64,000 nt of DNA, taken from positions 1 to 64,000 of the IMG/VR virus record IMGVR_UViG_3300029913_000003, one strand, 5' to 3'. Position 1 is the first letter of the stretch. Each line of letters begins with the position of its first letter. A model generated the notes under the pieces. That model was not told the DNA's origin. It did not search any database and saw nothing but the letters and a program-made list of their open reading frames with translations. Shown here one piece after another: positions 9,745-52,365 of the stretch. This DNA is from a virus. A program made the position numbers and the translations under genes.

Positions 9745-10143
9745 TTAATTTTTTATATCATTCCAATCAATATCATCACTATCTACATATTCATCAATTT
9801 CTTGGTTTCTATATTTGGAAATAATTTCTTGCCATGTTGGTTTAACTTTCCAAATACCAAGTATATTTATATAATCAGACCATTCAATGTGATTATCAAT
9901 ATCATAAACTTCTTCTCTATTTTCATTAACCCATTTAACATAATTAAATGCAAATGCTTGATCTGCAACAAAAAATCCAAGGTAAATTGCGAATATAGGT
10001 TTTGTGACTTTAAACACACCTTTATAATTTCTATCTTGATATTCTTGAAAAAGAATATAATCACCGAATTTTAATTGATTACAATTATCTGAGAAAGGAT
10101 TAAGTTTTTTCATAATTTTATATTTCAGTTTGTATTTTTGCAA
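9745..10143 (-). CDS. hypothetical protein (132 aa)
   Basis: ORF track. Confidence 0.5.
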   Translation of the reverse strand: MQKYKLKYKIMKKLNPFSDNCNQLKFGDYILFQEYQDRNYKGVFKVTKPIFAIYLGFFVADQAFAFNYVKWVNENREEVYDIDNHIEWSDYINILGIWKVKPTWQEIISKYRNQEIDEYVDSDDIDWNDIKN

Positions 10144-10300
10144 GTCCGTATCCTAAATATCCTCCTGATACACAGCATAATATAATTGTCAATATTATAT
10201 TATTCATTACAAATAAAGGATTTATAATCATAATTATAACTAATAATAACAATGTAATTATAGATATCACAAAAGGATAATATTTTTTTGCTTTTTTCAT
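10118..10300 (-). CDS. small membrane protein
   Basis: Two predicted TM helices. Confidence 0.45.
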   Translation of the reverse strand: MKKAKKYYPFVISIITLLLLVIIMIINPLFVMNNIILTIILCCVSGGYLGYGLAKIQTEI

Positions 10301-10305
10301 ATTTT

Positions 10306-10659
10306 TTATTTATAATTAACTTCTAAATAATGTTTTATACATTTATTTAATAATTCTGGATGAAGAATCTTTGCTGTTTGAATAGCGTCCATTTGCATTT
10401 CTGGCTTAGTATATCTTGCTAATGCCCAATCTATGTATGCTTCATATAAATCTTCATCTGTCTTTACATTGTGATGCCTTGCTATTCTTCTATGAATTTT
10501 AGATGCATTATAATCTCCTAAAATAAGAATAAGAATCATTTTTTCTAAATCGTGTTTAATTACTCTTAGCAATGAAACTTTTGTGGTTTCAGTCTTCCAC
10601 AATTTTAAAATTGCTATCTTATGTTTATATACTCTTTTAGATTCATCAAATCTATTCAT
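10306..10659 (-). CDS. hypothetical protein (117 aa)
   Basis: ORF track. Confidence 0.5.
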   Translation of the reverse strand: MNRFDESKRVYKHKIAILKLWKTETTKVSLLRVIKHDLEKMILILILGDYNASKIHRRIARHHNVKTDEDLYEAYIDWALARYTKPEMQMDAIQTAKILHPELLNKCIKHYLEVNYK

Positions 10660-10700
10660 AACTAAGTTTTTAATAATTAGAATACAAAGATAATAAAAAA

Positions 10701-10732
10701 AGTAGAATTAAATGAATAATTCTACTTTTTTA
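10701..10732. terminator. hairpin plus T/A-run intrinsic terminator
   Basis: agtagaatt / aattctact stem flanked by A-run and T-run. Confidence 0.55.
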
Positions 10733-10751
10733 ACTGTTATATTATGTTAAT

Positions 10752-11051
10752 TTAATCAAATAAATTTTCAGATGTCAATTCAGAGTCATCTCCATTTTCT
10801 GATGCTTCTTTACCATATCTAATTTGATTACTATTTTTAGCTATTTTCCAAGCTTCTTTTCTATAAACAAAATTTCCTTTTGATGTTAAAAATCCTTGCT
10901 CTTTTCTATTTGGCTCATGAAATTTAGTAGAGTTACAAGAAATTTCAATTTTATTTAATGAATCATAACAATCATTATGCCTTCTACCACAAACTATTAT
11001 ATCATCAAATTTAATTGCTGAGCATAATATATATTCTTTATCTTCCATCAT
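10752..11051 (-). CDS. hypothetical Cys-containing protein
   Basis: ORF track. Confidence 0.45.
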   Translation of the reverse strand: MMEDKEYILCSAIKFDDIIVCGRRHNDCYDSLNKIEISCNSTKFHEPNRKEQGFLTSKGNFVYRKEAWKIAKNSNQIRYGKEASENGDDSELTSENLFD

Positions 11052-11267
11052 TAAACTATTATACCATTTAATATCATAATATTTTTATATTTGTTAAAGT
11101 CAAGTTTTTGACGAATTATTTCACATTTTTTATTATATTCTTTAAGTGTTTTTGCGCCTTCGTCTACACACTGATAATGAGTTTGTACAAGAATATCAAA
11201 TTCTAATTGAGCATTTTTAGCATCTTCACGTTTTTCTTATACATAAAGTACTAGTTCTTCTGTAGTT

Positions 11268-11385
11268 CCGTCAACTTAAACATGCACAAATTTGTACAGG
11301 AAGTGACGTTTGGATGTTGTTTGATAACATTCCTTGTCCGAACACACTATTCTTTATAAATTTAAAGAAATCGTAGTCGCATTTA
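11268..11385 (-). ncRNA. putative omega-RNA (reRNA) scaffold region at TnpB 3' end
   Basis: ~118 nt at the 3' end of the TnpB ORF is repeated at 28386..28508; hairpin with conserved loop ATCAAAC kept by compensatory stem changes. Confidence 0.4.
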
Positions 11386-12728
11386 ATTTTAACTGGATTA
11401 CACAGTTTAAACATATAATTTTTCAGCCATGAAAAATCATTATTTTTGTTTGATTTTTTAATATGATTAACTGCACCATTTAAATCTGCATTCATTGTTT
11501 TATTTATTAGTTTGTCTGTAAACAATCCACGTTTAGAACGAACACCATTTAGTTCTTTATCTAACGGATTATTAACATCATCACTAACACAAGAACACTT
11601 GGAAGTGTAGGCTTCGTTAATTATATCTACTTGAATTCCAACTTCATTACTTTTATATTGAATGTAATCCAATAATTTAATGAAAGGAATCTGTATGAAA
11701 TTTTGTTTTACTTTATTATTTAATTTGCAGTCACCATTATATTTTAAGCTAGCTAAATTATATGATATGGTTAGGTTTGTTACTGAATTTAATTTCAAGA
11801 ACTCAACTACCCTTTTACTTACTTTATGAAACTGATCATAAAAATAACGATTCCTCTTTTCATAAAGAAATGTCTTATACTTCCTTAATTCTATTCCTCT
11901 TTGAGTCCACTTGGAAGCATATTTAATATTATTTTTACTTAAACTATATTCTATTACTTCGTTAGAAATTGATTCATTTAATTTAGCTATAAAACGATTG
12001 AATTTTGAGTTATAAGTCTTAAAGTGATTTCCATCTACAATAATTGATTTAGATTTTTTATCATCAATAAATATTGCAAGCAAATTATTGACTCCAACAT
12101 CAATCCCTGCTTCTTTTATGTTCAAATTACTATTTAAAATATCTTCAGTTAAATAGTTCAAGTGTAAATAAATTTCTTTGTTTGAGTAAACTATTTTAAG
12201 GCTTTGAATGTTTTTTGGTAGAAATTCGTGTTTGAAATCAATGTAAAACATTTTATTACTTAAGTTAATTCCAATTTTATCTTTTTTCTTGAAGGAAAAT
12301 GCAATTTGATCAACTAAAATTGAATATTTTGTTACCAAGAATAGCTTTTTAGCACTGGGTGTATTTGCCTTAACTTTTTGTTTGATTTTAGTGAAAAATG
12401 CTTTATAACTTACTTTAACTCTCTTAATCAAATCAGAAATATTATGAATTTTAAGACATTTAGATAAACGAATCAACTCAATCATTTTATCATAATTTTT
12501 ATATTTATCTTTAATAAACTTTACTTTGTCTTTTTCCAAACCGCCAGCAGTTTCAGCAAGAACTGCTCTCATGACTTTATAGTTAGAAAGTAAATTAAAA
12601 TCTTCTTGGTTTTCCTTCAATATTATAAGGTATAAGTTTTCGAAGTGACGATATTTGAAAATATAATCACTCATCATTTTTTTATATTTATCTTCTTTAA
12701 TGTGTATTATGAAGGTTCTATTATTCAT
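11271..12728 (-). CDS. tnpB: TnpB / Fanzor-like RuvC-fold RNA-guided nuclease (IS200/IS605 OrfB family)
   Basis: RuvC-I GIDVGVNN, RuvC-II INEAYTSKCSC, RuvC-III NADLNGAVNHI; 485 aa; no adjacent TnpA. Confidence 0.8.
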   Translation of the reverse strand: MNNRTFIIHIKEDKYKKMMSDYIFKYRHFENLYLIILKENQEDFNLLSNYKVMRAVLAETAGGLEKDKVKFIKDKYKNYDKMIELIRLSKCLKIHNISDLIKRVKVSYKAFFTKIKQKVKANTPSAKKLFLVTKYSILVDQIAFSFKKKDKIGINLSNKMFYIDFKHEFLPKNIQSLKIVYSNKEIYLHLNYLTEDILNSNLNIKEAGIDVGVNNLLAIFIDDKKSKSIIVDGNHFKTYNSKFNRFIAKLNESISNEVIEYSLSKNNIKYASKWTQRGIELRKYKTFLYEKRNRYFYDQFHKVSKRVVEFLKLNSVTNLTISYNLASLKYNGDCKLNNKVKQNFIQIPFIKLLDYIQYKSNEVGIQVDIINEAYTSKCSCVSDDVNNPLDKELNGVRSKRGLFTDKLINKTMNADLNGAVNHIKKSNKNNDFSWLKNYMFKLCNPVKIKCDYDFFKFIKNSVFGQGMLSNNIQTSLPVQICACLS

Positions 12729-12750
12729 TCAATTACTTGATTTTATTGCG

Positions 12751-12780
12751 TATTATATATAAATATTTAATAATTGTTTA
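12751..12780 (-). promoter_or_regulatory. AT-rich promoter-like repeat upstream of tnpB
   Basis: 25/30 identity to 13301..13330; both ~25-35 nt upstream of minus-strand starts; contains TATATAAT. Confidence 0.3.
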
Positions 12781-12956
12781 ATTTATTTACACTTTTTTAT
12801 AGTTTTGTTTAAATTTTTTGTAACTGAATCTAACCTCTTGCTCTTATGCTTTTAGCTTCACCATATTGACTATTTTCATCACCACTTGAATATGAAAAGC
12901 CAATTTCTTTTATAAATTCTTCTGTGAAAATTTTTAACATAACTTTATATTTTTAA

Positions 12957-17019: not shown

Positions 17020-17231
17020 AAATAGGAGATATAGTAATATATATAGGTAAAGATAATAAATTAATATATTTGAAAGAATATACTATTTATTATATAACTA
17101 CAACAGGATTTAATTATATATTTTTTATGATTGATGGAATTAATGCTATGAGCATGTTTCCTATTGAAGATTTTTGTACATTAAAAGAATATAGAAAATT
17201 AAAATTAAATAAATTATGCTCAACCAAGTAA
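17016..17231 (+). CDS. family A small protein (MKIGDIVIYIG ... LKEYRKLKLNKL)
   Basis: ORF track. Confidence 0.55.
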   Translation: MKIGDIVIYIGKDNKLIYLKEYTIYYITTTGFNYIFFMIDGINAMSMFPIEDFCTLKEYRKLKLNKLCSTK

Positions 17232-17434
17232 AAGGAATTACAGCTAAAACAGAATTAGATAAAAAAGCATATGAAAAATATGAAGAGTATATTGATATTC
17301 AAGGTTATTACACTCAATATACGTTAGATTTATTCTTAACTCAAAAGAAATCTAATAAAATTAAATTATTTTATGAAATAGCTTTAAAACAATTGAGATT
17401 AGATAAATTAAATAAATTATGTATACAGAATTAG
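17216..17434 (+). CDS. family D small protein (...KLNKLCIQN), TAG stop
   Basis: First of 4 tandem paralogs with overlapping junctions. Confidence 0.5.
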   Translation: MLNQVKGITAKTELDKKAYEKYEEYIDIQGYYTQYTLDLFLTQKKSNKIKLFYEIALKQLRLDKLNKLCIQN

Positions 17435-17613
17435 AAAAATTAAACAAGTTTGCATATGATATGTTTATATACGACATGAAAAATAAATATAGAATAAGCT
17501 ATTTGACTATTTATGAATTTATTGAAAATAAAGAAATATATCATAATTATTATGATAAAGCAAAAAAATTAATAAGAAAAGAAAAACTTAATAAAATATG
17601 CACACAAACGTAG
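17419..17613 (+). CDS. family D small protein (...KLNKICTQT), TAG stop
   Basis: Tandem paralog. Confidence 0.5.
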   Translation: MYTELEKLNKFAYDMFIYDMKNKYRISYLTIYEFIENKEIYHNYYDKAKKLIRKEKLNKICTQT

Positions 17614-17789
17614 ATATGCTAGCATATGAATTATATTGTGAAAGTAGAAATCCAAAGGATGAAGGATATTCATGCCTATGTACATTTGATTATTTTATTT
17701 ATAAAAAAAATGAATATCAATTATATTATGATAAGGTTATCAGAAAAGAAAAACTTAAAGAATTAAATGAAATATGTACACAGAATTAG
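17598..17789 (+). CDS. family D small protein (...ELNEICTQN), TAG stop
   Basis: Tandem paralog. Confidence 0.5.
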   Translation: MHTNVDMLAYELYCESRNPKDEGYSCLCTFDYFIYKKNEYQLYYDKVIRKEKLKELNEICTQN

Positions 17790-17965
17790 ATAAATTGACA
17801 TATAAATTATATTCAGAATATATGATGTCTGAAAGATGTATTATTTGGAATGATATTGAATATTTTATAAAACGTAAAGATTCATATCATGATTATTTCA
17901 ATGACGCTATAATTAAATTAAGAAAAGAAAAACTCAATACTATATCAAAATATGTGCAAATTTAA
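17774..17965 (+). CDS. family D small protein
   Basis: Tandem paralog. Confidence 0.5.
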   Translation: MYTELDKLTYKLYSEYMMSERCIIWNDIEYFIKRKDSYHDYFNDAIIKLRKEKLNTISKYVQI

Positions 17966-18513
17966 TATCGGAGATAAAATTGTTTATATTGTATATGAAA
18001 ATAATTTATCTTTTTATGAGTATCCGTTTGAGTGTTTTAAATATAGTGTTTTATTGTTAATTATTTAGCATGTGTTACTTGTCAACCATCTCTTTATTAG
18101 TTAACTACGTACAACTCTCAATTTTAACTTGGGGATTAATTAAAACATAAGAAACAACTCCATAGTAGTTGATCAGAACAATCAACCACGTATGCTTTAT
18201 TTTAGTCTATCCTAATTGATGACCCATACAATCAAATTTTATAACTATATAAATAACAAGACATTACTAATATTAAATAGATAAAGCGAATCAACATAAA
18301 TATATATATTAAGATATCCAAACGGATACTCATATATCTTTTTATGATGATTTTTTTAAAAAATATAACACGTATACGATAGTTCAAATTTTAAATAATG
18401 GTATTACATTTGGACTAGGAATTAAAGAGATAGGTGGTTATTACTCATCAAATTATTTCATAACTTTAAAAGAATATAGAAAATTAAAACTTCAAAAATT
18501 AGAATTGTTATGA
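17952..18513 (+). pseudogene. family A gene split by a MITE insertion
   Basis: MCKFNIGDKIVYIVYENNLSFY | 320-bp insert | DDFFKKYN...ITLKEYRKLKLQKLELL*; removing insert plus one TSD copy restores the frame. Confidence 0.6.
18015..18334. mobile_element. MITE-like non-autonomous element with 16-bp TIRs and 8-bp TSD
   Basis: TIRs TATGAGTATCCGTTTG / CAAACGGATACTCATA perfect; flanking direct repeat TATCTTTT at 18007..18014 and 18335..18342; no ORF inside. Confidence 0.7.
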
Positions 18514-18757
18514 TAACTAATATAAATAAATATGATAAAGTAGTATATATTTTGGTCATGATGGTAAAATTAGTCAGTCTAAATTTATCTATGGTAATAT
18601 TTATACAGTAACAGGCTACTTTCGATCTTATATACCAGAATTGTCTTATATAACTACAGATGAAATAGAAAATTTTTATATTTATCTTAATTTTTTTATT
18701 ACATTAAAAGAATATAGAAAATTAAAACTTCAAAAATTAGAATTATGTTTAGAGTAG
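18510..18757 (+). pseudogene. family A pseudogene, frameshift in a T-run
   Basis: MITNINKYDKVVYIL.. then frame switches to ..HDGKISQ...ITLKEYRKLKLQKLEL. Confidence 0.5.
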
Positions 18758-18954
18758 GAGAAAAAATAGTTTATATAAAGCAATCATATACTGGACTTAA
18801 ATTAGCATCAATTCATATTATAAAAGATATTAGATTTGATACTAGTATATCATTAGAAGATTCTTATAAAAATTGGTGGTTTTCATCCGAATGTTTTATA
18901 TCACTATCTGAATATCGAAAACAAAAACTTAATGAATTAAAAAAAATATCATAA
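18745..18954 (+). CDS. family A small protein (MFRVGEKIVYI ... LSEYRKQKLNEL)
   Basis: ORF track. Confidence 0.55.
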   Translation: MFRVGEKIVYIKQSYTGLKLASIHIIKDIRFDTSISLEDSYKNWWFSSECFISLSEYRKQKLNELKKIS

Positions 18955-19019
18955 TATTTTTTTATTCAAAATTAATTTCATATATTTGCACATTAAATGT
19001 TTAACTAAATAATTATAAT

Positions 19020-20081
19020 ATGATAGATAAAAATATTTGTATACCTGGCAACATATTTGTTGTAAATAACAAAGTTTCAAAAGTAAATAATCAATATAAT
19101 GATTATTATAATCAAAAAGACTCATTAGGATTAAATGCTTATATTCATATGAAAGATGGAATAGATTATTCTGGTTATAACATGATTGAAATTCCATCAG
19201 GTACAAAAATTGAAATAATTAAATTTAAAAATGCAACAGCATTTTTTAAAATAATAAGTGAGCCTAATAATATTTATTCTGCATATTGGTCTCCATTTAA
19301 AGTTAAAGTTGATAAAATTGAAGGTCAAGAAATTAGTGAACCTGAAGTTATACCAACTAGATATAAAATCTTCTATAAAGGAAAAGCTCACAAGCCAAAA
19401 TATTTCAATGATCTTGGTAAAGTTAAAGCATCATTACTTATTACAATTGGATATTATGAAAATCAATATGAAATGTTCCAAAAATATATTGATCGTAATC
19501 CAGAATTAGAAGACTCACAAATTCCAGAATGGTGTCAATCTGCGAATGAAACATTTGATAGAGATGATTGTAAATATCTTGAAATTATGTCATACGTTAA
19601 TGGTGATAACAAACATCCTATCAAATTTGATTTTGATATGCTTAAATATTATGATGATTCAATGAGATTGATTAATGTCACTGCTCAGTTTGGCAACGCA
19701 GCAAGAGAAGTATTCAAAAATGTAATGAATACAAAAGAATATTCTTATATGTTAGTTTATTATCCTTATGAATATCGTAATCCTAATAATTTTGATGTAA
19801 GTTATGGCTATAAAAGTAGTAATTTTGATTTTAGTGAATTGAAAGAAGATCAAAGAATTAAAGACATTTTAAAAGAATCTGGGATCAAAGGAACAAAAAA
19901 ATCTACCAAATTTGGTAAAACTGCAATAGCTTTTAAAACTCTTGATGATCTTAAACAAGTTATGTTAAGGCTAGAACCAAAAGAATATTTTATTCTTGAT
20001 TGTGACGGTGATCAATTAATTGAAAAAAATACAAGATTTATTAAATTAATTATGCTTCAAGAAGAAAATTTTGATGAATAA
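19020..20081 (+). CDS. hypothetical protein (353 aa)
   Basis: Long intact ORF; no recognisable motif. Confidence 0.55.
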   Translation: MIDKNICIPGNIFVVNNKVSKVNNQYNDYYNQKDSLGLNAYIHMKDGIDYSGYNMIEIPSGTKIEIIKFKNATAFFKIISEPNNIYSAYWSPFKVKVDKIEGQEISEPEVIPTRYKIFYKGKAHKPKYFNDLGKVKASLLITIGYYENQYEMFQKYIDRNPELEDSQIPEWCQSANETFDRDDCKYLEIMSYVNGDNKHPIKFDFDMLKYYDDSMRLINVTAQFGNAAREVFKNVMNTKEYSYMLVYYPYEYRNPNNFDVSYGYKSSNFDFSELKEDQRIKDILKESGIKGTKKSTKFGKTAIAFKTLDDLKQVMLRLEPKEYFILDCDGDQLIEKNTRFIKLIMLQEENFDE

Positions 20082-20084
20082 TAT

Positions 20085-20387
20085 ATGAAAATAGGAGATA
20101 AAATATTTTGCTTAGATTATCAAATATATTCGGATTATAATGACGATATTAAATATAAAGGAGGATTATTAAAAAAAAATACAGAATATACAATCTATGG
20201 TATTTTTTTAGAATTTAGTGATTATTCTGAAAAATGGGTAGCAGAAACTCCTAAGATAGATGATAATAATTGTCAAATATATTTTGAATTAATTGAACTT
20301 GATGAGTTGATGTTTAATAAATGTAGATTTTTAACTAATAATGAATATAGAAAACTTAAGTTGCAGAAAATATATGAAAGTAGGTGA
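20085..20387 (+). CDS. family A small protein (MKIGDKIFCLD)
   Basis: ORF track. Confidence 0.55.
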   Translation: MKIGDKIFCLDYQIYSDYNDDIKYKGGLLKKNTEYTIYGIFLEFSDYSEKWVAETPKIDDNNCQIYFELIELDELMFNKCRFLTNNEYRKLKLQKIYESR

Positions 20388-20607
20388 TAAAGTAATTTTT
20401 CATAGTAATCATTATTATAGAGATTTAATAGAAGGTTACACATATACAATATCTGAAATTAATAGAATAGATGATGCTTATATTGAAATACCTAACGAAG
20501 ATTATATTATAGTATTATTAGAAAATACTTACGTTTTTTTATCAGATTTTATAACTATAAAAGAATATCGAAAACTTAAATTGAAAGAAATAGATGAAAG
20601 TAGGTGA
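20341..20607 (+). CDS. family A small protein (MKVGDKVIF)
   Basis: ORF track. Confidence 0.55.
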   Translation: MNIENLSCRKYMKVGDKVIFHSNHYYRDLIEGYTYTISEINRIDDAYIEIPNEDYIIVLLENTYVFLSDFITIKEYRKLKLKEIDESR

Positions 20608-20797
20608 TAAAGTTGTATGTATTGATAATTATAATTATACATATAAAATTTCATTAGATAAAATTTTAACAATAAAATTCAATAATAATTCTTATATGAA
20701 ATTTGATGAAATCGATTATAGATATTCAAGTAATAGATTTATAACTATAAAAGAATATAGAAAACGTAAATTAAAAAAATTAAAAAACTTATACTAA
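20594..20797 (+). CDS. family A small protein (MKVGDKVVCID)
   Basis: ORF track. Confidence 0.55.
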   Translation: MKVGDKVVCIDNYNYTYKISLDKILTIKFNNNSYMKFDEIDYRYSSNRFITIKEYRKRKLKKLKNLY

Positions 20798-20835
20798 TAT
20801 TTGGTAGTTATAAAAAAATATATTATCTTTATAAT

Positions 20836-22962: not shown

Positions 22963-23033
22963 GCTCATTTAGTCCAGTGATAGGGCGGTAGCCTCTAAAA
23001 CTACCTACATCGGTTTGAATCCGATAGTGAGCA
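22963..23033 (+). tRNA. tRNA with anticodon CUA (amber-reading / suppressor-type), hand-folded
   Basis: Acceptor GCTCATT/AGTGAGC; D-stem GTCC/GGGC; anticodon stem GTAGC/ACTAC with loop CTCTAAA (U33, A37); T-arm ATCGG-TTTGAAT-CCGAT; discriminator A; 71 nt. Confidence 0.65.
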
Positions 23034-23070
23034 CAAATATATTTTTCATAAGGTATATTTATTTTTAAAA

Positions 23071-23592: not shown

Positions 23593-23839
23593 CGTTGGAG
23601 ACAAAATTTATTTTATTAAATCTTTATGATACAATATAGATTTACCATCAAATAAAGAATTAACAATCTTACATATATTTGATTGCCGTAATAATATTGT
23701 AATAGGAGGAGTTACTACTGTAATTAGAATAAAAGAAGCTATAATTGTTGATGATTATTATTCAGAACAATTTTTATCATTGAAAGATTATAGAAAAGAA
23801 AAACTAAAAAAATTATCAAATATATGCAAGCTTGGGTAA
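23585..23839 (+). pseudogene. family A-like pseudogene (multiple frame breaks)
   Basis: MLNVGDKIYFIKSL* then tail ..SLKDYRKEKLKKLSNICKLG* readable only in other frames. Confidence 0.45.
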
Positions 23840-24078
23840 AAAAACATAATTCAACATTTTATTGTATTGATAACTATATAAAAAAAGATAATAAAAATTA
23901 TAATCTTAAATCTTATAAAATGGGTACATCTTTTGATAAATATACTAATTTTAGAATAATATACTATGATAGTAATATATCAAGACAAGTTTTTTTTTCA
24001 AATATAACATTATCTGCTAATGAATATAATAATTTTATAAGAAAAACAAAAATTGAAAAATTATCAAAATATGAATGA
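23824..24078 (+). CDS. hypothetical small protein, tail IRKTKIEKLSKYE
   Basis: ORF track. Confidence 0.45.
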   Translation: MQAWVKKHNSTFYCIDNYIKKDNKNYNLKSYKMGTSFDKYTNFRIIYYDSNISRQVFFSNITLSANEYNNFIRKTKIEKLSKYE

Positions 24079-24334
24079 TTGGATAAATAAATGGATAGAA
24101 AGAAAAAATGAATTACCATTATTTTTTGATTATATTATTAAAAAAGATAATGAAAAATATGAATTTTATTCATATATGAAATTAACAACTTATGAATTTA
24201 GCATAAAAGTTAAATTGTCATATTATATTATAAATGTAGATACTATGTTTTCAGATGAAAAAGAAATATCATTTAATTCATTTAATAATTATCTTAGAAA
24301 AATTAAATTAGAAAAATTAAATGAAAATATCTAA
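24053..24334 (+). CDS. hypothetical small protein, tail LRKIKLEKLNENI
   Basis: ORF track. Confidence 0.45.
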   Translation: MKNYQNMNDWINKWIERKNELPLFFDYIIKKDNEKYEFYSYMKLTTYEFSIKVKLSYYIINVDTMFSDEKEISFNSFNNYLRKIKLEKLNENI

Positions 24335-24608
24335 TTTTGAATTATTGATTTATGTTATAAATAACGTTGAACGTTTTTATATATCAGAAGGATATGTTAT
24401 AGATCGTATATCATATAATATAATTAGAAATACATTATGTATAACTGTACGATATTTAATTAAAGTTGATTCTGAATTATGTACAAGTATTACAGTAAAT
24501 GTTAATATTAGAGATTATATTAGAGAAACTAGAAGAATAAAATTTAAGAAAATGAAAATAGATGAAAATAACAAAAAAGGATATGATGATTTATATATTG
24601 AATCATGA
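24321..24608 (+). CDS. hypothetical small protein
   Basis: ORF track. Confidence 0.45.
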   Translation: MKISNFELLIYVINNVERFYISEGYVIDRISYNIIRNTLCITVRYLIKVDSELCTSITVNVNIRDYIRETRRIKFKKMKIDENNKKGYDDLYIES

Positions 24609-24793
24609 TGAAGAATTTATTCTTAATAAAAAATATACTATTGACGATATAAAATATCATATATCAATAATGAAATTAATATTGATATTACATATTTAAT
24701 AGCTGATAATAAATATAAACAATTTAATTATTATATTTATATTTTAGAATACGTAAAATATATAAGAAAATTTAAATTATCTAAAATAATATT

Positions 24794-25222
24794 ATGATAA
24801 ACGTAAAGTTATATAATAAAGAATTATTTACTAAACATAATTTGTTTATTGAAGTCTGTATTCCTAATGATAAATATAATTCTATATCTCATTTATTTGA
24901 TGTAATAATAAATAAATTAATAGAGTATAAAAATAGAGATGTTTATTTTGCTTCTATTCGTAGTTTAATAGGTATAATGCTAGTTGAAATGAAACATGTA
25001 GATGAATTGGAATTAGAAGATTTTTTTAGAATTTTTCAATATAGATTTGATGTGCTTGATAATAAAATAGATGTGTTTAATGGATGGTATCATTTTATAA
25101 ATCAAGATATAGAAGATATTAAAGGAATAACTTTACATCAATTTAATATGATGATTAATGATGATAAATATATTAAAAAATATTTTAGAATGATTAAACT
25201 TCAAAAATTATCAAAATTATGA
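24794..25222 (+). CDS. hypothetical protein, tail RMIKLQKLSKL
   Basis: ORF track. Confidence 0.5.
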   Translation: MINVKLYNKELFTKHNLFIEVCIPNDKYNSISHLFDVIINKLIEYKNRDVYFASIRSLIGIMLVEMKHVDELELEDFFRIFQYRFDVLDNKIDVFNGWYHFINQDIEDIKGITLHQFNMMINDDKYIKKYFRMIKLQKLSKL

Positions 25223-25590
25223 TAGTAGAATATTATAATATAGATTTTTCAATAAATTATCAATCTGAAGAAATAGATTCAAATAGAATATATAATATTA
25301 TTAAAAATTATATAAATAATTATATAATGATATATAAAAATAATCCTCATATTTATGTAGGTAAGGATTGTTTTGATTTTATTTTATATTCCGATAAATT
25401 TCATCTTATTTCTTACAAATCATCAAAACCTTATATCGGAATATTATATGACTGTTATCTTTATATAAACACAGATTTACAAGAAGGGGATTTTTATTTA
25501 TCTAATAATAAAATAGATTTTAAACAATATAATAGAAAATTAAAAATAGAAAAAATAAATAATTATTATAATGAAAATAGTAAAATTTAA
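25219..25590 (+). CDS. hypothetical protein, tail NRKLKIEKIN
   Basis: ATGA overlap. Confidence 0.5.
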   Translation: MIVEYYNIDFSINYQSEEIDSNRIYNIIKNYINNYIMIYKNNPHIYVGKDCFDFILYSDKFHLISYKSSKPYIGILYDCYLYINTDLQEGDFYLSNNKIDFKQYNRKLKIEKINNYYNENSKI

Positions 25591-25707
25591 TGTTGAAATA
25601 TTTGATAATTATATATTAAAAACTACTAGGATTTTTACGAATTATTATATAAAGAAATATCTAAAAATTTTAATGATTATGGAGTTGCTGTTGTTTTTAG
25701 TCGTAAA

Positions 25708-25914
25708 ATGATGGATAATTTAAATTATCTTAATTGTAATTATAAAATTCATATTCAATATCAAGTAAATGATTATATAAACATAAATGATGTTTTTATA
25801 TATCCATATTATGCAGCCAATGAATGTGATATTATATTAACAGATTTTGATTTTATTAAATATTATAGAAAACAAAAACTTAAAGAAATATGTTTAAACC
25901 AGGAGATAGAGTAG
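25708..25914 (+). CDS. family A member with decayed N-terminus (tail YYRKQKLKEICLNQEIE)
   Basis: Upstream in-frame remnant DYGVAVVFSRK lacks a start. Confidence 0.45.
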   Translation: MMDNLNYLNCNYKIHIQYQVNDYININDVFIYPYYAANECDIILTDFDFIKYYRKQKLKEICLNQEIE

Positions 25915-26132
25915 TTTGCATAAATGATGAAAATAATTGTGATCCAAATATAAATCTAATTAAATATAATATTTATATTGTAAAAGAGTTACATGAATAT
26001 ACCAATAATAGAATAATATTAGAATATCATGAAAATAGTTTATATTATAATACTAGATTTATATTATTAAAAGAATATAGAAAAGAAAAACTCAAACAAA
26101 TAGAATTATGTTCAAACCAGGAGATAAAGTAG
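25890..26132 (+). CDS. family A small protein (MFKPGDRVVCIND)
   Basis: Tandem array; junction ELCSNQEIK overlaps next start. Confidence 0.6.
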   Translation: MFKPGDRVVCINDENNCDPNINLIKYNIYIVKELHEYTNNRIILEYHENSLYYNTRFILLKEYRKEKLKQIELCSNQEIK

Positions 26133-26344
26133 TGTGTATTAATGATAAATATTTTTATAATGATAAATCTATAATAGAAATGATTAAATATAATATTTAT
26201 ACAATAAATAGAATTGCAGAAATTTCAGGTAGCAATACAGATAGAGTTGTATTATATGAATGTAAACGTATGTATTTTTCACACAGATTCATATCATTAA
26301 AAGAATATAGAAAACAAAAATTATTAGAAATATGTTCAAAGTAG
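26108..26344 (+). CDS. family A small protein
   Basis: MFKPGDKVVCIND ... RFISLKEYRKQKLLEI. Confidence 0.6.
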   Translation: MFKPGDKVVCINDKYFYNDKSIIEMIKYNIYTINRIAEISGSNTDRVVLYECKRMYFSHRFISLKEYRKQKLLEICSK

Positions 26345-26598
26345 GAGATAAAGTAGTTTGTATTGATGTTAAAAAATATAATAATAATAATTATAATGTA
26401 AACCTAATTAAATATAATATTTATACAATTAATATAGATTTTTCAGTTTTTGATAGATCAAGTTTTGGTAGATCAAGAGTTGAAATAAAAGAATGTTGTA
26501 ATGAGACATTTTATTCAGAGAGATTTATATTATTAAAAGAATATAGAAAACAAAAACTCAAACAAATAGAATTATGTTCAAACCAGGAGATAAAGTAG
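26332..26598 (+). CDS. family A small protein
   Basis: MFKVGDKVVCIDV ... RFILLKEYRKQKLKQI. Confidence 0.6.
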   Translation: MFKVGDKVVCIDVKKYNNNNYNVNLIKYNIYTINIDFSVFDRSSFGRSRVEIKECCNETFYSERFILLKEYRKQKLKQIELCSNQEIK

Positions 26599-26813
26599 TT
26601 TGCATTGATCAACAATATAGAAAAAAATACAATTTACCTAATACAATATTAGAAGTTACAGAATATAAAGATATAAGATATAAAAAATTATTTAGTGAAA
26701 ATTTTATTATTTGTTTCAAAGATATAAAATATGGATATAATTATAATTGTTTTATGCTATTAAAAGAATATCGTAAATTAAAATTATTAAAATTAAATAA
26801 AAATGATAAGTGA
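26574..26813 (+). CDS. family A small protein
   Basis: MFKPGDKVVCIDQ ... LLKEYRKLKLLKL. Confidence 0.6.
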   Translation: MFKPGDKVVCIDQQYRKKYNLPNTILEVTEYKDIRYKKLFSENFIICFKDIKYGYNYNCFMLLKEYRKLKLLKLNKNDK

Positions 26814-27084
26814 ATCAAGTCTTGTTAATTATATAGAAAATCTAAATCTTAGAAAAACCCATGAATGTTTTGATACTAACTATATAATTGATAATAATTA
26901 TATAATATGCATTGAATCATCTACTAATGTTTTTTTCATAGATAAAAAAATGAATTCGAACCTGTATATTTTCATAATTAATATTGAAAAATTAAAAGAT
27001 ATTTATTATAAAAAAACTGGTAAAAATATAGAAATTTTAATGAGAAAAGAAAAACTAAAAAAATTAGAAGAATGTTCAAGATAA
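26803..27084 (+). CDS. divergent array member (tail LMRKEKLKKLEECSR)
   Basis: Lacks GD start motif. Confidence 0.45.
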   Translation: MISESSLVNYIENLNLRKTHECFDTNYIIDNNYIICIESSTNVFFIDKKMNSNLYIFIINIEKLKDIYYKKTGKNIEILMRKEKLKKLEECSR

Positions 27085-27296
27085 GAGATAGAGTAGTTTG
27101 CATTGATAATTCTTATTTATATGATATAAATCTATTACAATTAAATAATATTTATATAATTGAAGATATTTTTAGTTATGATACAGAAAATAATTATATT
27201 GGTATGATATTAGAAAAATATAATTTTGAATTTAATTCTAATAGATTTATATCATTAAAAGAATATAGAAAACAAAAAATATTAAAATTATGTTAA
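27072..27296 (+). CDS. family A small protein (MFKIRDRVVCIDN)
   Basis: ORF track. Confidence 0.55.
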   Translation: MFKIRDRVVCIDNSYLYDINLLQLNNIYIIEDIFSYDTENNYIGMILEKYNFEFNSNRFISLKEYRKQKILKLC

Positions 27297-27535
27297 AACC
27301 AGGAGATAAAGTAATTTGTATTGATAATTCTTATTTAGATGATAATAGTATGAGAAAATTATTATTAAACCATATTTATATAATTAAACTATGCTTTACA
27401 TATCAATCAGATCATTTTAATTATATTATATTAGAAAATGATTTTGAATATCATGAAAATAGATTTATAACATTAAAAGAATATAGAAAACAAAAACTAT
27501 TAAAATTATGTTCAAACCAGGAGATAAGTTATTAG
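27290..27535 (+). CDS. family A small protein (MLKPGDKVICIDN)
   Basis: ORF track. Confidence 0.55.
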   Translation: MLKPGDKVICIDNSYLDDNSMRKLLLNHIYIIKLCFTYQSDHFNYIILENDFEYHENRFITLKEYRKQKLLKLCSNQEISY

Positions 27536-27756
27536 AAATATCAACTAACAAAATTTTCACATTCTGTGATTATATAAAAACTATATCATATTCATCAAAT
27601 TATAATGATATGATAGTGAATGATTATGATTATGAAAATGGTTTAATATCAATCAATGAAGATGCAGAAAATTATCATAGAATTAATAAATATTTATCTA
27701 TTAAAGAATGTAGAAAAGAAAAACTTAAAAAATTATATAAAGATTTTAATATTTAA
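27508..27756 (+). CDS. family A divergent member (MFKPGDKLLEIS)
   Basis: ORF track. Confidence 0.5.
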   Translation: MFKPGDKLLEISTNKIFTFCDYIKTISYSSNYNDMIVNDYDYENGLISINEDAENYHRINKYLSIKECRKEKLKKLYKDFNI

Positions 27757-27849
27757 AGTTAAAAATCAATAAAATAAATAATATATTAATATCTAAATCA
27801 TTTATATTTTATATCTTTGTCATCATTATAATAATTATTTAAAATACTC

Positions 27850-28116
27850 ATGAAAATAACATATACTAAGCAAAAAGGGGCGAGAATTAAATATTCATTC
27901 AAAAGACCATTTTCAATTAATATAAATGGTTATTGGTGGAATTGTGAATTATTAAGATGGGAAAAAGAAGATGACTTCAATTTTTATAAATATGAATATA
28001 CTAGTAATTATTATTCTTTAAAATCAGTTAAAAGATTTCTTATAAAATATAAAGCACCAAAAGGTAAAGATTCCGTTACAAAAAAATTAAATAAAAATAT
28101 AAAAAAGTGTAAATAA
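27850..28116 (+). CDS. hypothetical basic small protein
   Basis: ORF track. Confidence 0.45.
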   Translation: MKITYTKQKGARIKYSFKRPFSININGYWWNCELLRWEKEDDFNFYKYEYTSNYYSLKSVKRFLIKYKAPKGKDSVTKKLNKNIKKCK

Positions 28117-28385
28117 AATAAACTTTTTTAAAATATTATACTATTAAATATAATTAAACAAATAGTTCTTTGATGTCATGATAAAATGGTTGTTAGTTAA
28201 AAACTTAACTAACGTAAAATCATAAAAGTAATAAGTTTGATTAAAAATCAAACTGAAACTTTTAATCGTTATACATATCAATAATATTGATTACAGTAAA
28301 CATAGAACGATTAATACACTTTTAAATACATCTTAACAACGGACTATAATAAGTCTTAAAAATGGTTGTTCGTTATGTAGTTTAA

Positions 28386-28508
28386 ATAATTAAAAGCGAC
28401 TACGATTTCTTTAAATTATTAAAGAATAGTGTGTTCGGATAAAGAATTTCATCAAACGAAATTCAAACGTCACAGCAAGTACAAATTTGTATAAGTTTAA
28501 GTTGACGG
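28386..28508 (+). ncRNA. orphan copy of the TnpB 3'-end / omega-RNA-like element (no tnpB ORF)
   Basis: ~85% identity to revcomp of 11268..11385; perfect hairpin GAATTTC-ATCAAAC-GAAATTC; sits in a 430-bp ORF-free gap. Confidence 0.45.
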
Positions 28509-28615
28509 TATACCTATTAATATATCAACCATGTGGATTAATCATGATATGAAAGTTATCATAAAAAAAGATTTAGTTGGAAGTAAATTAAGAAAAAGAA
28601 AATTATTAAAAATAA

Positions 28616-28840
28616 ATGAAAATAGGAGATAAAGTTTTATTTACTGATTATTTTTATGAACATCATAAATATATAACAGATAATAGATATAATATTTTTA
28701 CAATCAAAGATTATTTTAGCGATAATTTCACCATTATTTCTTTATATGAACTTCCAATGTATTATTTTGAACCAAAAAATTTAATAACAGTATCAGAAAT
28801 TAGAAAAAAAAAATTAAAAAAATTAAAAATATATGAATAA
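28616..28840 (+). CDS. family A small protein (MKIGDKVLFTD ... VSEIRKKKLKKL)
   Basis: ORF track. Confidence 0.55.
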   Translation: MKIGDKVLFTDYFYEHHKYITDNRYNIFTIKDYFSDNFTIISLYELPMYYFEPKNLITVSEIRKKKLKKLKIYE

Positions 28841-29384
28841 ATTCGGAGTAATATTAGCAAGAGTTCAGCCAGTACATAATGGTCATATGGCATTAATTAA
28901 AAAGGCATATGATGAAAATGAAAATGTAGTATTTTTAGTTGGAAGTGCGGATAAAGTTGACTCAAGAAATCCAATTCCAGTTAGCATTAGAATTGAAATG
29001 CTAAAAGATGCATTAAAAGAAGCTAAGTTGATTGATAAATGTTTAATAATACCATTAGATGATTTAACTTCAGAAAGTGATAATTCTATTGAATGGGGTT
29101 TTTATCTTTATACTAAAATAGTAGATCAAATTAAAGATAGTTGTTTCACTATGTATTATTCAGATGGATTTGAAATCATCACTAAATGGTTTCCAGGATT
29201 TATGTTCAAAAATAATGTATCTCTGGTGCTATTAGCAAGAGGAACTGTTGAAGATGGTGTATCTGCTACCGAAGTTAGAAAAGCTATACTGAGCAATTCT
29301 CCTGAGCTAAAAAACATGGTTCCAAAATCAGTCTATAATAACAGAAATACGATTAAATCATTTATTGAATTAAATAAAGAATGA
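28833..29384 (+). CDS. nicotinamide-nucleotide adenylyltransferase, archaeal NadM-type cytidylyltransferase fold
   Basis: ARVQPVHNGH matches NMNAT GRFQPFHxGH; SATEVRKAI matches SxTxIR; 183 aa. Confidence 0.6.
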   Translation: MNKFGVILARVQPVHNGHMALIKKAYDENENVVFLVGSADKVDSRNPIPVSIRIEMLKDALKEAKLIDKCLIIPLDDLTSESDNSIEWGFYLYTKIVDQIKDSCFTMYYSDGFEIITKWFPGFMFKNNVSLVLLARGTVEDGVSATEVRKAILSNSPELKNMVPKSVYNNRNTIKSFIELNKE

Positions 29385-29914: not shown

Positions 29915-30208
29915 ATGAAAGAGCACAATCACAATAATGATATTAATTATAATGCTGTTATTGAACAATGTGGTTTAATATTATATAAAAAGAAAGCAAT
30001 AGGTAATAAAGCAAGATTATTGTATATAATTCAAGCAAAATCTGGTAGATATGATCATCAAAGTATTATTATAATAAAAGAAATTAATAAAGATTTCATA
30101 AAAATAAATGATTCTAATGATATAGAATCAAAATTATATGAACCAGATAGATTACTTTATAACCAAATAAAAGAATATATAATAGAAGCAAATTATGAAT
30201 ATAGATAG
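29915..30208 (+). CDS. hypothetical protein
   Basis: ORF track. Confidence 0.45.
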   Translation: MKEHNHNNDINYNAVIEQCGLILYKKKAIGNKARLLYIIQAKSGRYDHQSIIIIKEINKDFIKINDSNDIESKLYEPDRLLYNQIKEYIIEANYEYR

Positions 30209-31217
30209 AAAATTAGCAACAATTCAGGTAATTAAAGACATATTACCAATTAAAGGAGCAGATAGAATAGAGGTTGCACGCATAAAAGGTTGGAAAGTAG
30301 TAGTTAAAAAAGACGAATTTAAAGTAGGTGACAAAGTTGTTTATTTTGAAATTGATTCACTATTACCTATTAGAGAAGAATTTGAATTTCTTAGAAATAG
30401 TTCATATAGAAAAACTGATGAACAAGAAGGTTTCCTCTTGAGAACGGTCAAATTACGCAAACAATTTTCATGTGGACTAATAATGTCATTAGATATTTTA
30501 AATGATACACCTTGTCATATATTTAAATTGACAGAAGGTGATGATGTATCTGATTATCTAAATGTTGTAAAATTTGAAGTTCCAATACCTGATGAACTTA
30601 AAGCTGATGTTGTTGGTCCTATTCCTTCATTCATATTGAAGACAAATGAAGAACGCGCACAAAATTTATCTGATGATTTCGATGAATGGAAAAAAGATAA
30701 TGTAATATTCTATGAAACAGAGAAACTTGATGGTCAATCTACCACTATGTATTTACATAATGGAGTATTTGGCGTGTGTGGTAGAAACTGGGAATTTAAA
30801 AGAAATCCAAATAATTTATTTTGGAAATTTGCAATTGAAAATAATATTGAAGAGAAATTAAGAATATATGGTAAAAATATTGCTGTTCAAGGTGAATTAA
30901 TTGGTTCAGGAATAGAAGGCAATAACTATAAATTAAGCCATAAAACAATAAAATATTTTAGAGTTTTTAATATAGATGAATATAAATTGGAAGATTATAA
31001 TACATTCGTTGATATTGTAACTAATGTATTAAATGCTGACACGGTTCCTTTAATTTGTAGTTATTATAAATTACCTGGCACTATTGATGAAATATTAAAA
31101 CATGTTGAAGGCAAATCTGTATTAACAAATTCATCAAAAAGGGAGGGAAGTGTATTTAAATCAATTGATTCATCAATAAGTTTTAAGGTCATTAACAATG
31201 AATATTTAATTAATTGA
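30195..31217 (+). CDS. ATP-dependent RNA ligase (Rnl5/DraRnl-like: N-terminal OB/tRNA-binding fold plus nucleotidyltransferase)
   Basis: N-terminus IKGADRIEVARIKGWKVVV..VGDKVVYFE resembles OB tRNA-binding fold; ligase motif I ETEKLDGQS (KxDG); 340 aa. Confidence 0.5.
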   Translation: MNIDRKLATIQVIKDILPIKGADRIEVARIKGWKVVVKKDEFKVGDKVVYFEIDSLLPIREEFEFLRNSSYRKTDEQEGFLLRTVKLRKQFSCGLIMSLDILNDTPCHIFKLTEGDDVSDYLNVVKFEVPIPDELKADVVGPIPSFILKTNEERAQNLSDDFDEWKKDNVIFYETEKLDGQSTTMYLHNGVFGVCGRNWEFKRNPNNLFWKFAIENNIEEKLRIYGKNIAVQGELIGSGIEGNNYKLSHKTIKYFRVFNIDEYKLEDYNTFVDIVTNVLNADTVPLICSYYKLPGTIDEILKHVEGKSVLTNSSKREGSVFKSIDSSISFKVINNEYLIN

Positions 31218-41375: not shown

Positions 41376-41468
41376 AAGAAAGTAAGTCAAAAGGTCAGAC
41401 TAGTAAAGCCAAAAAAGCGTTTATATAAAAAATATTCATTTATGTTGGTTCGAATCCAACCTTTCTTT
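41376..41468 (+). tRNA. tRNA-like gene with canonical T-arm and D-arm plus ~20 extra nt (possible intron)
   Basis: Acceptor AAGAAAG/CTTTCTT perfect 7 bp; D-arm AGTC-AAAAGGTCA-GACT; T-arm GTTGG-TTCGAAT-CCAAC; anticodon region not canonical. Confidence 0.4.
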
Positions 41469-51341: not shown

Positions 51342-51653
51342 CTATAAGTTAAAATTAGTTGCAGCATTTTTTAGTTTAATTATTTCTTTATCTTTATCAA
51401 ATATTAATATAGCATCTGGATAAATGATCCATCCTTTAGTATGACTAAAATCATAAAAATTAATTGTATATGATGCCATAGTTCCAGTTTCATAATCAAT
51501 TATTTTAAAAATTTTATTTGTTAATTTTTTCAAATAATATTTTTTTAATTCTGAATTTGAAAAACTTATATTATTCACATCAAGAATAACATAATCTCCT
51601 ACTTCAGGTTTATCAGTATTATTTATTTCTTCAAATCTTTTTAAGTATTTCAT
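51342..51653 (-). CDS. family E cassette protein (MKYLKRFEE ... ATNFNL)
   Basis: Conserved N/C termini; NTDKPEVGDYV subfamily. Confidence 0.55.
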   Translation of the reverse strand: MKYLKRFEEINNTDKPEVGDYVILDVNNISFSNSELKKYYLKKLTNKIFKIIDYETGTMASYTINFYDFSHTKGWIIYPDAILIFDKDKEIIKLKNAATNFNL

Positions 51654-52018
51654 ATGTTAAATTTATTTGCATTTTTTTTAATTTCTATTCGTTGTTTTAA
51701 TTCTTCTTTTGTTTTTCCAATTGCATTTATATCCTCTAAATTAAATATTTTATTATAACCTCCATAAGGTTTATCATATGGAAAAAACTTTAATACATTT
51801 TCTGGAATTTTAAATCCATATGTTACAATTATTCTATCATCATTAAAAAATGTATATATTTGTCCAGGATGATTAAGAAGATAATCTTTTAAATTATCAA
51901 GTTCTTTTTCATCATAGTATCTTTTTAAATGATTAATATATTTTTTACTTATTATTGAAACATAATCTCCTACTTCAGGCTTATTAGTAGTATTTTCAAA
52001 TGTTTTTATATATTTCAT
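51650..52018 (-). CDS. family E cassette protein (MKYIKTFEN ... ANKFNI)
   Basis: ATGA overlap; conserved termini. Confidence 0.6.
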   Translation of the reverse strand: MKYIKTFENTTNKPEVGDYVSIISKKYINHLKRYYDEKELDNLKDYLLNHPGQIYTFFNDDRIIVTYGFKIPENVLKFFPYDKPYGGYNKIFNLEDINAIGKTKEELKQRIEIKKNANKFNI

Positions 52019-52365
52019 ATGTTAAATTTATTTGCTTGTAATATAGCTTTTAATTCTTCTTTATTTTTAGAATATTTTATAATATCTATTGCTTTCATAG
52101 AAAATCCATATTCATTATTTGATAGAAATATTTTAAAATTATTTAATTCAAATGGAATATTATCATATTGTATAATATAATGTGTAGTTCCAGGAAATAA
52201 TTTACCAGTAATTTCAACAAGTTTACCTATATTATTATTAATAAAATCATTAAATATTTTATATTTTTCATTATTATGACCTTCATACCATTCACATATG
52301 ACGTAATTTCCTACTTCAAGTTTATCAGTATTATTTATTTCTTCAAATGTTTTTATGTATTTCAT
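52015..52365 (-). CDS. family E cassette protein
   Basis: ATGA overlap; conserved termini. Confidence 0.6.
   Translation of the reverse strand: MKYIKTFEEINNTDKLEVGNYVICEWYEGHNNEKYKIFNDFINNNIGKLVEITGKLFPGTTHYIIQYDNIPFELNNFKIFLSNNEYGFSMKAIDIIKYSKNKEELKAILQANKFNI

Follow-up and report, generated by a model that had tools for sequence, protein, structure and literature searches.

Why would a phage genome hold the 3' end of one transposon-associated nuclease gene twice, once in the gene itself and once where no nuclease is encoded? The question arises in a 64-kb stretch of IMG/VR virus record IMGVR_UViG_3300029913_000003 (positions 1 to 64,000; "the window"), which belongs to a phage-like genome that extends far beyond it and is very AT-rich (about 21% GC). 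Its minus strand carries a tnpB open reading frame (ORF) of 485 amino acids (aa), and the segment that spans the end of this ORF recurs on the plus strand. We find that the two copies are the right ends of two insertions: a tnpB element without its serine-recombinase transposase gene (element 1) and a 444-bp miniature element with no protein gene (the mini element). Their identity, as a solo tnpB of the IS607 lineage and a protein-less derivative that share a conserved scaffold of the omega-RNA type, is well supported. Taken as a whole, the locus probably represents two members of one IS607-family lineage that spread in phage by RNA-guided homing, with the mini element borrowing TnpB in trans. 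That TnpB uses the mini RNA in trans, and that the elements home from one phage genome to another, we infer from the architecture and from published systems.

A conserved, putative omega-RNA scaffold

11271..12728, minus strand: tnpB ORF, 485 aa, its TGA stop inside the terminal GTTGACGG
11268..11392, minus strand: predicted omega-RNA scaffold, copy 1 (core 11268-11380), five helices, overlapping the last 37 tnpB codons
28384..28508, plus strand: predicted omega-RNA scaffold, copy 2 (core 28396-28508), non-coding (in-frame TAA)

The two copies are the arms (11268-11388 and 28388-28508) of the longest inverted repeat in the window, 121 nucleotides (nt) long and 86% complementary. This bears out the initial annotation, which had noticed a repeat of about 85% identity at the 3' end of the ORF. 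Two sub-patterns of the repeat each match only the two copies, with 0 matches expected in shuffles. Similarity stops in both copies at GTTGACGG, with unrelated flanks past it, so that the shared right boundary proposed at the outset also holds. The boundary GTTGACG(G/A) is common to six related loci (L027, L028, L029, L001, L030 and L040), all with unrelated flanks.

Nine close sequences folded with RNAalifold gave a consensus of five helices, and a covariance model (R1) was built from them. R1 scores copy 1 at 148 bits and copy 2 at 141 bits, both over model positions 1-125, and matches nothing else in the window. Outside it, R1 gives one full-length match at the tnpB 3' end in 26 distinct loci (TnpB 42-95% identical in aa) and one match per mini-element locus; the 33 matches at E<=1e-5 include a few same-contig duplicates from a contig fetched twice. 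In the R1 alignment, 95.4% of the cells pair, as against 26-49% when partners are slid by 1-3 columns, and 24 of the 34 pairs have changes on both sides (observed values reached by 0 of 500 shuffles), all counted in an alignment fitted to the model and so biased towards structure. In plain MAFFT alignments, covariation is seen in helix 4 (CGUCA/UGACG, CGUUA/UAACG, CGUUG/CAACG, CGAUG/CAUCG) and is likewise apparent in helices 2 and 3. The hairpin with a constant loop and a compensatory stem that had first pointed to an RNA is present in both copies (GAATGTT/AACATCC in copy 1, GAATTTC/GAAATTC in copy 2), and further relatives add the stem variants GAATTTC/GAAGTTC and GAATAAC/GTTATTC.

When the whole window was scanned with Rfam at gathering thresholds, only two tRNAs reached score, and permissive scans (E<=10) around both copies returned no omega-RNA, RAGATH or group I intron family. 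A covariance-model search had been suggested with the initial annotation; the Rfam models matched nothing relevant around the copies, and the de novo model recovered the tnpB and mini loci. As in TnpB systems, a structured RNA lies over the tnpB 3' end, ends at the right boundary and is followed by a variable flank in the guide position. The covariation across the family is strong, and on the sequence comparisons the claim at the core of the initial annotation is well supported: the shared segment is a conserved structured RNA of the omega-RNA type throughout this TnpB clade. Beyond position 451 the family alignment (25 TnpB members) has no invariant or nearly invariant residue; the final ~35 residues of TnpB are essentially translated scaffold.

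Copy 2 lies in a 444-bp insertion without a protein gene

28065..28508, plus strand: miniature non-autonomous element, 444 bp (left end, hairpin-rich spacer, omega-RNA scaffold/right end; no protein gene)
28065..28158, plus strand: left end of the mini element, homologous to the left ends of copy 1 and L027; AAGG precedes it
28159..28387, plus strand: internal spacer of the mini element, 229 nt, a row of near-perfect hairpins
28509..28528, plus strand: predicted guide of copy 2, TATACCTATTAATATATCAA
27850..28064, plus strand: split small phage gene, 5' part
28509..28632, plus strand: split small phage gene, 3' part, aligning to residues 82-121 of protein P0121

A second segment shared by the two loci had been missed (12741-12831 versus 28068-28158; 91 nt, 79% identical); it is the left end of the element. 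What had been described as an orphan RNA copy in an ORF-free gap is really a non-autonomous element with a left end of its own, inserted in a small gene and present at a second locus elsewhere. Its boundaries read ...CCAAAAGG|TAAAGATTCC... and ...GTTGACGG|TATACC.... Excising 28065-28508 in silico joins the ORF that begins at 27850 in frame to the ORF that ends at 28632 and yields 112 aa; P0121 (121 aa, 87% identical to this reconstructed protein) aligns intact across the junction. The P0121 contig (L045) is syntenic with window positions 27212-29094 at ~95% nt identity, without exactly the 444 bp. Its empty site reads CCAAAAGG|TATATCTATTAATATATC (TATATC after the junction), and the difference from the occupied site is exactly the element, with only GG(TA) ambiguous.

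On three viral contigs (L037, L034 and L046) we found the same unit, compared over 450 nt, at 98.7% identity with both boundaries the same. The flanks there share nothing with the window at the nucleotide or protein level, and the element likewise splits an ORF. An exact pattern specific to the mini element matches only three contigs, all with one insertion site. Identical proteins are found on contigs of 222-347 kb, and with so much of the genome lying outside the window, the three contigs may come from related phages; they document a different insertion site, not necessarily a different virus. Two ends, no protein gene, precise insertion and two independent sites are the features of palindrome-associated transposable elements (PATEs) and miniature inverted-repeat transposable elements.

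There are at least two other ways to read such a copy. The first is that copy 2 is the 3' remnant of a decayed tnpB pseudogene in an intergenic gap, as its in-frame stop and the absence of tnpB coding sequence upstream would suggest. We give this next to no credence: the left end sits 230 nt upstream, ordered and oriented as in the full element; compared with L045, where an intact gene spans the site, precisely these 444 bp have been inserted; the spacer bears no trace of tnpA or tnpB; and a mini element with identical boundaries sits at another locus. The initial annotation had itself set its proposal against two outcomes: a lack of further copies and of structural covariation, or a decayed pseudogene with third-position changes only. 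Neither applies, for the changes between copies 1 and 2 are spread 7/4/6 over codon positions 1/2/3, a stop interrupts the reading frame of copy 2, and further copies exist.

The second is that the mini element is a miniature IStron, whose left end and spacer act as a self-splicing intron and remove the insertion from the host mRNA. IS607-family IStrons exist and lie in genes in sense orientation (10.1101/2023.11.20.567912), the mini element is sense-oriented in both genes that it interrupts, and the 320 nt that precede its scaffold fold to an unusual degree (z = -3.2 to -4.0). We nevertheless consider an intron very improbable, given that Rfam yields neither a group I intron nor any other family with the threshold relaxed to E<=10, that no placement of the boundary within the ambiguous GGTA yields a 5' exon ending in U plus an intron ending in G, and that the full-length relative has 105 nt from the left boundary to the tnpB ATG.

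The spacer showed no similarity by blastn and tblastx to any of the fetched loci, tnpA and tnpB included. Its fold z-score is -3.2 (-4.0 for the whole mini element), and the mini copies are too similar to one another for a covariation analysis of it. A promoter-like site lies at 28321-28350, of a kind not enriched over shuffles. In 3 of 3 insertions with verified sites, the element is co-oriented with the interrupted gene, and because of this, read-through transcription could supply the guide RNA. The gene split by the mini element adjoins the edge of an array of paralogous genes for proteins of 75-95 aa and has a similar basic C-terminal tail.

Both elements derive from the IS607 lineage

The closest homologue of the window TnpB (P0001, 95% aa identity, on L027) directly follows and overlaps a 202-aa MerR+Resolvase ORF, and P0010 (57% aa identity, on L043) likewise lies behind and overlaps such an ORF. 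A MerR+Resolvase ORF followed by an overlapping tnpB is the IS607 architecture. The family is thus IS607, not IS200/IS605: the nearest relatives carry a serine-recombinase TnpA. In the 64-kb window, tblastn with the TnpA of the closest relative found no TnpA-like sequence, and neither window element has a serine-recombinase tnpA upstream of tnpB, as a complete IS607 element would. Since tnpA is absent from the window and present in L027 and L043, the window copies are best classified as non-autonomous derivatives of the IS607 lineage rather than complete IS607 elements.

The left end of L027 (58 nt before tnpA) matches both window left ends, and 61 nt in the window stand where L027 has 643 nt containing tnpA. 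The architecture of the relatives, the shared left end and the replaced tnpA region thus mark element 1 as a tnpA-less IS607-family derivative. Element 1 has lost its serine-recombinase tnpA and kept the left end, an apparently intact tnpB and the scaffold; the mini element is a protein-less derivative that kept only the left end and the scaffold/right end.

The junctions agree with this assignment. In copy 1, the mini element, L027 and L037 alike, both junctions carry GG, with no target-site duplication beyond GG and no terminal inverted repeats, and GG is the overlap dinucleotide of IS607 (PMC4058570). The elements have IS607-lineage ends inserted at GG, not the subterminal hairpin ends of the Y1-mobilised IS200/IS605 type of PATE, inserted 3' of a transposon-adjacent motif (TAM) of the TTAC/TTGAT type.

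The mini element has kept the whole scaffold

The structured RNA is ~113-125 nt long, and homology between the mini element and tnpB starts ~9 nt before helix 1. Over the preceding 160 nt RNAalifold gave no further conserved structure, so the mini element retains exactly the structured part. Of the 34 pairs, 33 form in copy 1 and in the mini copy, in the latter without coding constraint (in-frame TAA). Compared with the nearest full-length sequence (L029), copy 2 has 12 differences, of which 3 are in paired columns and 2 of these 3 keep the pair.

Does this retention reflect use of the RNA? The main rival to our reading is that the right end survives solely as the DNA on which the serine transposase acts, with an RNA fold that is passively inherited and unused by TnpB. 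A non-autonomous IS607 derivative needs both ends for mobilisation, the last 30 nt contain a palindrome (GTACAAATTTGTAC), the right-end motifs GTTACAAAAAA and TTTAAAC/GTTTAAG occur also in the left end and could be TnpA sites, and the mini copies are 99% identical, which leaves little time for decay. The retained extent and the structure-preserving changes argue against this explanation, which we consider unlikely. The retained 121 nt start within ~9 nt of helix 1 and cover all five helices, although a shared left end of merely 58 nt suffices in L027; there are 10-22 differences from full-length copies and yet 33 of 34 pairs are kept; and the changes in the mini element avoid paired columns or keep the pairing, including G-U variants that fit an RNA and not a DNA palindrome.

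The TnpB protein and its family

The 485-aa ORF matches Pfam OrfB_IS605 (7e-10) and Cas12f1-like_TNB (9e-10) and contains the RuvC motifs GIDVGV, INEAYTSKCSC and NADLNGAVNHI. D210, E372 and D415 are invariant in the 25-member alignment and form the D-E-D split RuvC of TnpB. Together with the negative tblastn search across the window, this confirms the solo TnpB with three RuvC motifs and no adjacent TnpA that had been described.

The label "Fanzor-like" was correct in part. E372, in INEAYTSKC, occupies the C-terminally shifted RuvC-II position, and an invariant serine (S322) takes the canonical one. Fanzor and pro-Fanzor proteins are defined by DPG in RuvC-I plus the shifted RuvC-II glutamate (10.1101/2023.08.09.552727), whereas RuvC-I of the window protein (GIDVGV) has DVG (D-hydrophobic-G), not DPG, and the context is a prokaryote-type virus. 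A direct reading of the alignment shows that the second Cys pair of the zinc finger is missing throughout the clade.

A search of PDB with the 485-aa sequence (phmmer) gave no match; the family profile reaches Cas12f and TnpB-like structures and chains. With a cut-off of E<=0.001 we counted 199 TnpB homologues, the closest of them 95% identical; among cellular organisms, the closest matches come from bacteria (Sulfurihydrogenibium, Caloranaerobacter and others). Known phage records gave no nucleotide match and only distant TnpBs (<35% identity). A first exact pattern for the right end had no match in IMG/VR, a second had a 330-kb relative as its sole match, and a right-end pattern found nothing in 185,579 representative genomes. 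L030, with a 75%-identical TnpB, encodes a second, different TnpB 4.4 kb downstream (10003-11223; 406 aa, HTH_OrfB_IS605). Because of this second protein, we note that AT-rich viral genomes can carry several TnpB lineages.

Element 1 and its element-free allele

11268..12833, minus strand: tnpA-less IS607-family element, 1,566 bp (left end, tnpB, omega-RNA scaffold/right end), delimited by its junctions and the L049 allele
12741..12833, minus strand: left end of element 1, 79% identical to 28068-28158
11248..11267, minus strand: predicted guide of copy 1, AACTACAGAAGAACTAGTAC, the flank directly 3' of the scaffold
12834..12940, minus strand: 5' part (36 codons) of a truncated gene, intact (92 aa) at L049 410-688

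The left junction of element 1 reads ...GCAAGAGG|TTAGATTC and the right junction ...GTTGACGG|AACTAC; the first 58 nt of its left end are 86% identical to the left end of L027. Among the contigs that encode an identical neighbour protein (P0123), L047 matches the window at 99.98% identity and carries the element; L049, with flanks 98-99% identical, lacks it. Between the left GG (...GCAAGAGG|) and ...AAAGAAGG|AACTACAGAAGAACTAGTAC, L049 has 292 nt (517-808). The window allele is thus element 1 plus an adjacent 292-bp deletion relative to L049, and this deletion truncates the 92-aa gene and takes away the start of the next. RAGG sites flank the missing segment at both ends, which suggests a recombinase-mediated event; candidates for the loss are a recombinase-mediated adjacent deletion, or two insertions followed by recombination. 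L001 was uninformative as an empty-site comparison for copy 1, its tnpB lying elsewhere in a rearranged region, and L049 was used instead. Both elements are insertions joined to host DNA at GG, each with a natural element-free allele.

The first ~23 nt of the left end (TTAGATTCNGTTACAAAAAANTTAAA) recur in the 3' coding region of an unrelated gene on L035 (679-720), L038 and L039 (6575-6620). These matches encode ...SLDSVTKKLKSRGHEL... and have no scaffold nearby. We judged the pattern unrelated or coincidental, as it lies in a coding region without a scaffold; it could be fortuitous, or a clue to where the left end came from.

Guides, the predicted TAM and a homing model

The left flanks read GAGG (copy 1), AAGG (mini element), AAGG (L037) and AAGG (L027), and site B in L049 is AAGG. 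On the other side, the scaffold ends in (A/T)CGG at 26 of 28 loci and in ACGA at 2, and the full-length copies have at least 7 different right flanks. The initial annotation had asked whether the flank past the scaffold matches other loci. Within the window it does not: the guides of copies 1 and 2 have no other match at up to 3 mismatches. The element-free alleles, on the other hand, do match: L049 has GAAGG followed by a 20/20 match to the copy 1 guide, and the empty site of L045 (AAAAGG|TATATCTATTAATATATCAA) matches the copy 2 guide at 19 of 20 positions, with the mismatch at position 5.

By analogy, this arrangement of the junctions is that expected for TnpB-mediated homing and retention, which has been shown experimentally for IS605 (PMC10055086) and IS607 (10.1101/2023.11.20.567912). 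AG-rich TAMs adjoin the left end in other IS607 TnpBs (PMC11061315). The TnpB of ISXfa1, with a 144-nt scaffold, cuts at a GGG TAM and not at CGG, and the ISXfa1 scaffold-guide junction is CGG, so that occupied sites are spared (10.1101/2023.08.09.552727). PATEs often bear omega-RNAs that TnpB uses in trans (PMC10055086).

In the model that we favor, TnpB would bind and process transcripts that cross the right end, and 16-20 nt of the flank would serve as the guide. The complex would cut the uninterrupted site in any genome copy (a TAM of about RAGG, then the guide match). Occupied sites would be spared because their scaffold-guide junction reads CGG, and repair from an element-bearing copy would reinstall the element. 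In phage, such homing would run between co-replicating or co-infecting genomes. The mini element would need TnpB in trans for homing, for example from element 1, and a TnpA encoded elsewhere for transposition. A bolder version is that the mini element is a working RNA-only homing parasite, which encodes the guide RNA alone, uses the resident TnpB and a foreign serine transposase, and drives into element-free co-infecting large phages, its spacer being a new 5' expression or stability module. We hold this version tentatively, as somewhat short of an even chance.

Several points weigh against the homing model, besides the structural bias of the R1 pair counts. (i) With no TnpA in the 64-kb window, current mobility is not demonstrable from the window alone. 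(ii) The RAGG motif comes from five junctions, three or four of them independent, which is not enough for a logo. (iii) The guide of the mini element is mismatched once to the sole empty allele found (L045). (iv) Element 1 comes with an additional 292-bp deletion that insertion does not account for. (v) In this TnpB clade the second Cys pair is missing and the RuvC-II glutamate is shifted, so that activity is an assumption from sequence. (vi) There is a single mini lineage at two sites, and retention of the whole scaffold could be an accident of deletion or reflect a need for TnpA binding at the right end.

The guides also bear on whether copy 2 is a domesticated stand-alone guide-RNA gene, a weapon that the phage aims with its single TnpB at a sequence of its host or of a competitor. 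A genome that holds one nuclease gene and two scaffolds, each with its own guide, would fit this, and exapted TnpB systems are known (PMC10705468). The guide, though, is simply the DNA beside the insertion, and what it matches is the unbroken form of that phage gene; this is the signature of selfish homing rather than of a selected target, and the mini element is mobile and disrupts genes. Domestication is in our view a quite improbable alternative to homing.

Comparison with known systems

ISXfa1 of Xylella fastidiosa (10.1101/2023.08.09.552727) resembles the window lineage in several ways: a serine-recombinase TnpA (present in the nearest relatives of the window TnpB), insertion is at GG, the scaffold overlaps the tnpB 3' end (113-125 nt here, 144 nt in ISXfa1), the left flank ends in purine-GG and the scaffold-guide junction is CGG, which prevents self-cleavage in ISXfa1. 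Unlike ISXfa1, the window copy has lost tnpA and resides in an AT-rich large phage. Its TnpB is longer (485 aa), with a RuvC-II glutamate in the shifted position and a zinc finger without the second Cys pair, and the predicted TAM is RAGG, not GGG.

ISFba1-type IS607 TnpBs, with guide RNAs derived from RAGATH-18 (PMC11061315), have an AG-rich TAM beside the left end and a 3' non-coding RNA guide, as predicted for the window lineage. In contrast to these, the window scaffold matches no Rfam family, RAGATH-type included, and lies almost wholly inside the ORF rather than downstream; the protein is too distant for a phmmer link to any solved TnpB.

Fanzor2 and pro-Fanzor (10.1101/2023.08.09.552727; PMC3627910) share IS607 ancestry and a shifted RuvC-II glutamate just upstream of the zinc-finger position; they differ from the window protein in its RuvC-I DVG, its prokaryote-type virus and its bacterial nearest cellular homologues.

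PATE-like IS200/IS605 derivatives in Geobacillus stearothermophilus (PMC10055086) have, like the mini element, two ends and a guide-RNA scaffold and, as proposed for it, depend on TnpA and TnpB in trans. Their mobility relies on a Y1 (HUH) transposase that acts on single-stranded hairpin ends, whereas the mini element has IS607-type ends at GG, would need a serine recombinase and resides in a phage genome. The components and the logic are already known, PATEs being protein-less omega-RNA carriers for IS200/IS605 (PMC10055086). In a literature search that was not exhaustive, we found no description of an IS607-type protein-less derivative that carries an omega-RNA.

The locus offers a clean natural example in phage of the experimentally established logic of TnpB transposons, with three things together: a nuclease-bearing element, a protein-less derivative that keeps the scaffold, and element-free alleles with the predicted TAM and guide target. 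The scaffold would represent a new compact class of omega-RNA (~115 nt, five helices, strong covariation, not in Rfam) from a TnpB clade in which the catalytic glutamate is shifted and the zinc finger degenerate. Should activity be borne out, the clade would offer a candidate for a small editor with an AGG-type TAM, and guide-RNA-only parasites would exist for serine-recombinase (IS607) transposons too. If the mini element is indeed a homing parasite, related metagenomes, in which occupied and empty alleles occur side by side, would offer a natural view of RNA-guided gene drive among phages.

Other features of the window

A tRNA with anticodon CTA, which reads amber TAG, lies at 22963-23034 on the plus strand (labelled tRNA-Pyl by ARAGORN; Rfam tRNA score 55 bits). 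Prompted by it, we considered stop-codon recoding: treating TAG as a sense codon extends ORFs no further than the same treatment of TGA, TAG terminates 17 of 133 long ORFs with no sign of genome-wide recoding, and the standard code was kept. A tRNA-like match of 93 nt at 41376-41468 on the plus strand (Rfam 41 bits), which ARAGORN does not call, may have an intron or long insertion.

An 817-aa protein (2531-4984, plus strand) combines a major-vault-protein shoulder (1e-29), a Vault_3 repeat and SPFH/Band 7, a combination unusual for a phage; it has no PHROG match. RNA-repair and nucleotide-metabolism genes lie at 30195-31217, 54718-55656 and 56284-57006 (plus strand) and at 61890-63539 (minus strand); the set comprises an RNA ligase (phrog_968), a polynucleotide kinase/3'-phosphatase-like protein, a CCA-adding/poly(A) polymerase-family protein and PPK2 fused to HAD_SAK_2.

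The small paralogous genes for proteins of 75-95 aa form large tandem arrays at 5600-7400 (minus strand), 17100-20800 and 23700-28850 (plus strand). Their products start with MFK(P/V)GDKVVCID and end in ...LKEYRKQKLLKL, and they make up repeat families D1, D3, D6, D9, D14 and D17. A second paralogous array, at 51580-52700 and 58000-61900 on the minus strand, is conserved over a start region of 60-100 nt (...CAAATAAATTTAACATATGAAATA...; families D2, D4, D8 and D15), and L001 holds this family too (MKYLKKFE...). Four to six 60-nt tandem repeats (D7, 65-70% identical) lie in a minus-strand ORF at 59594-59953.

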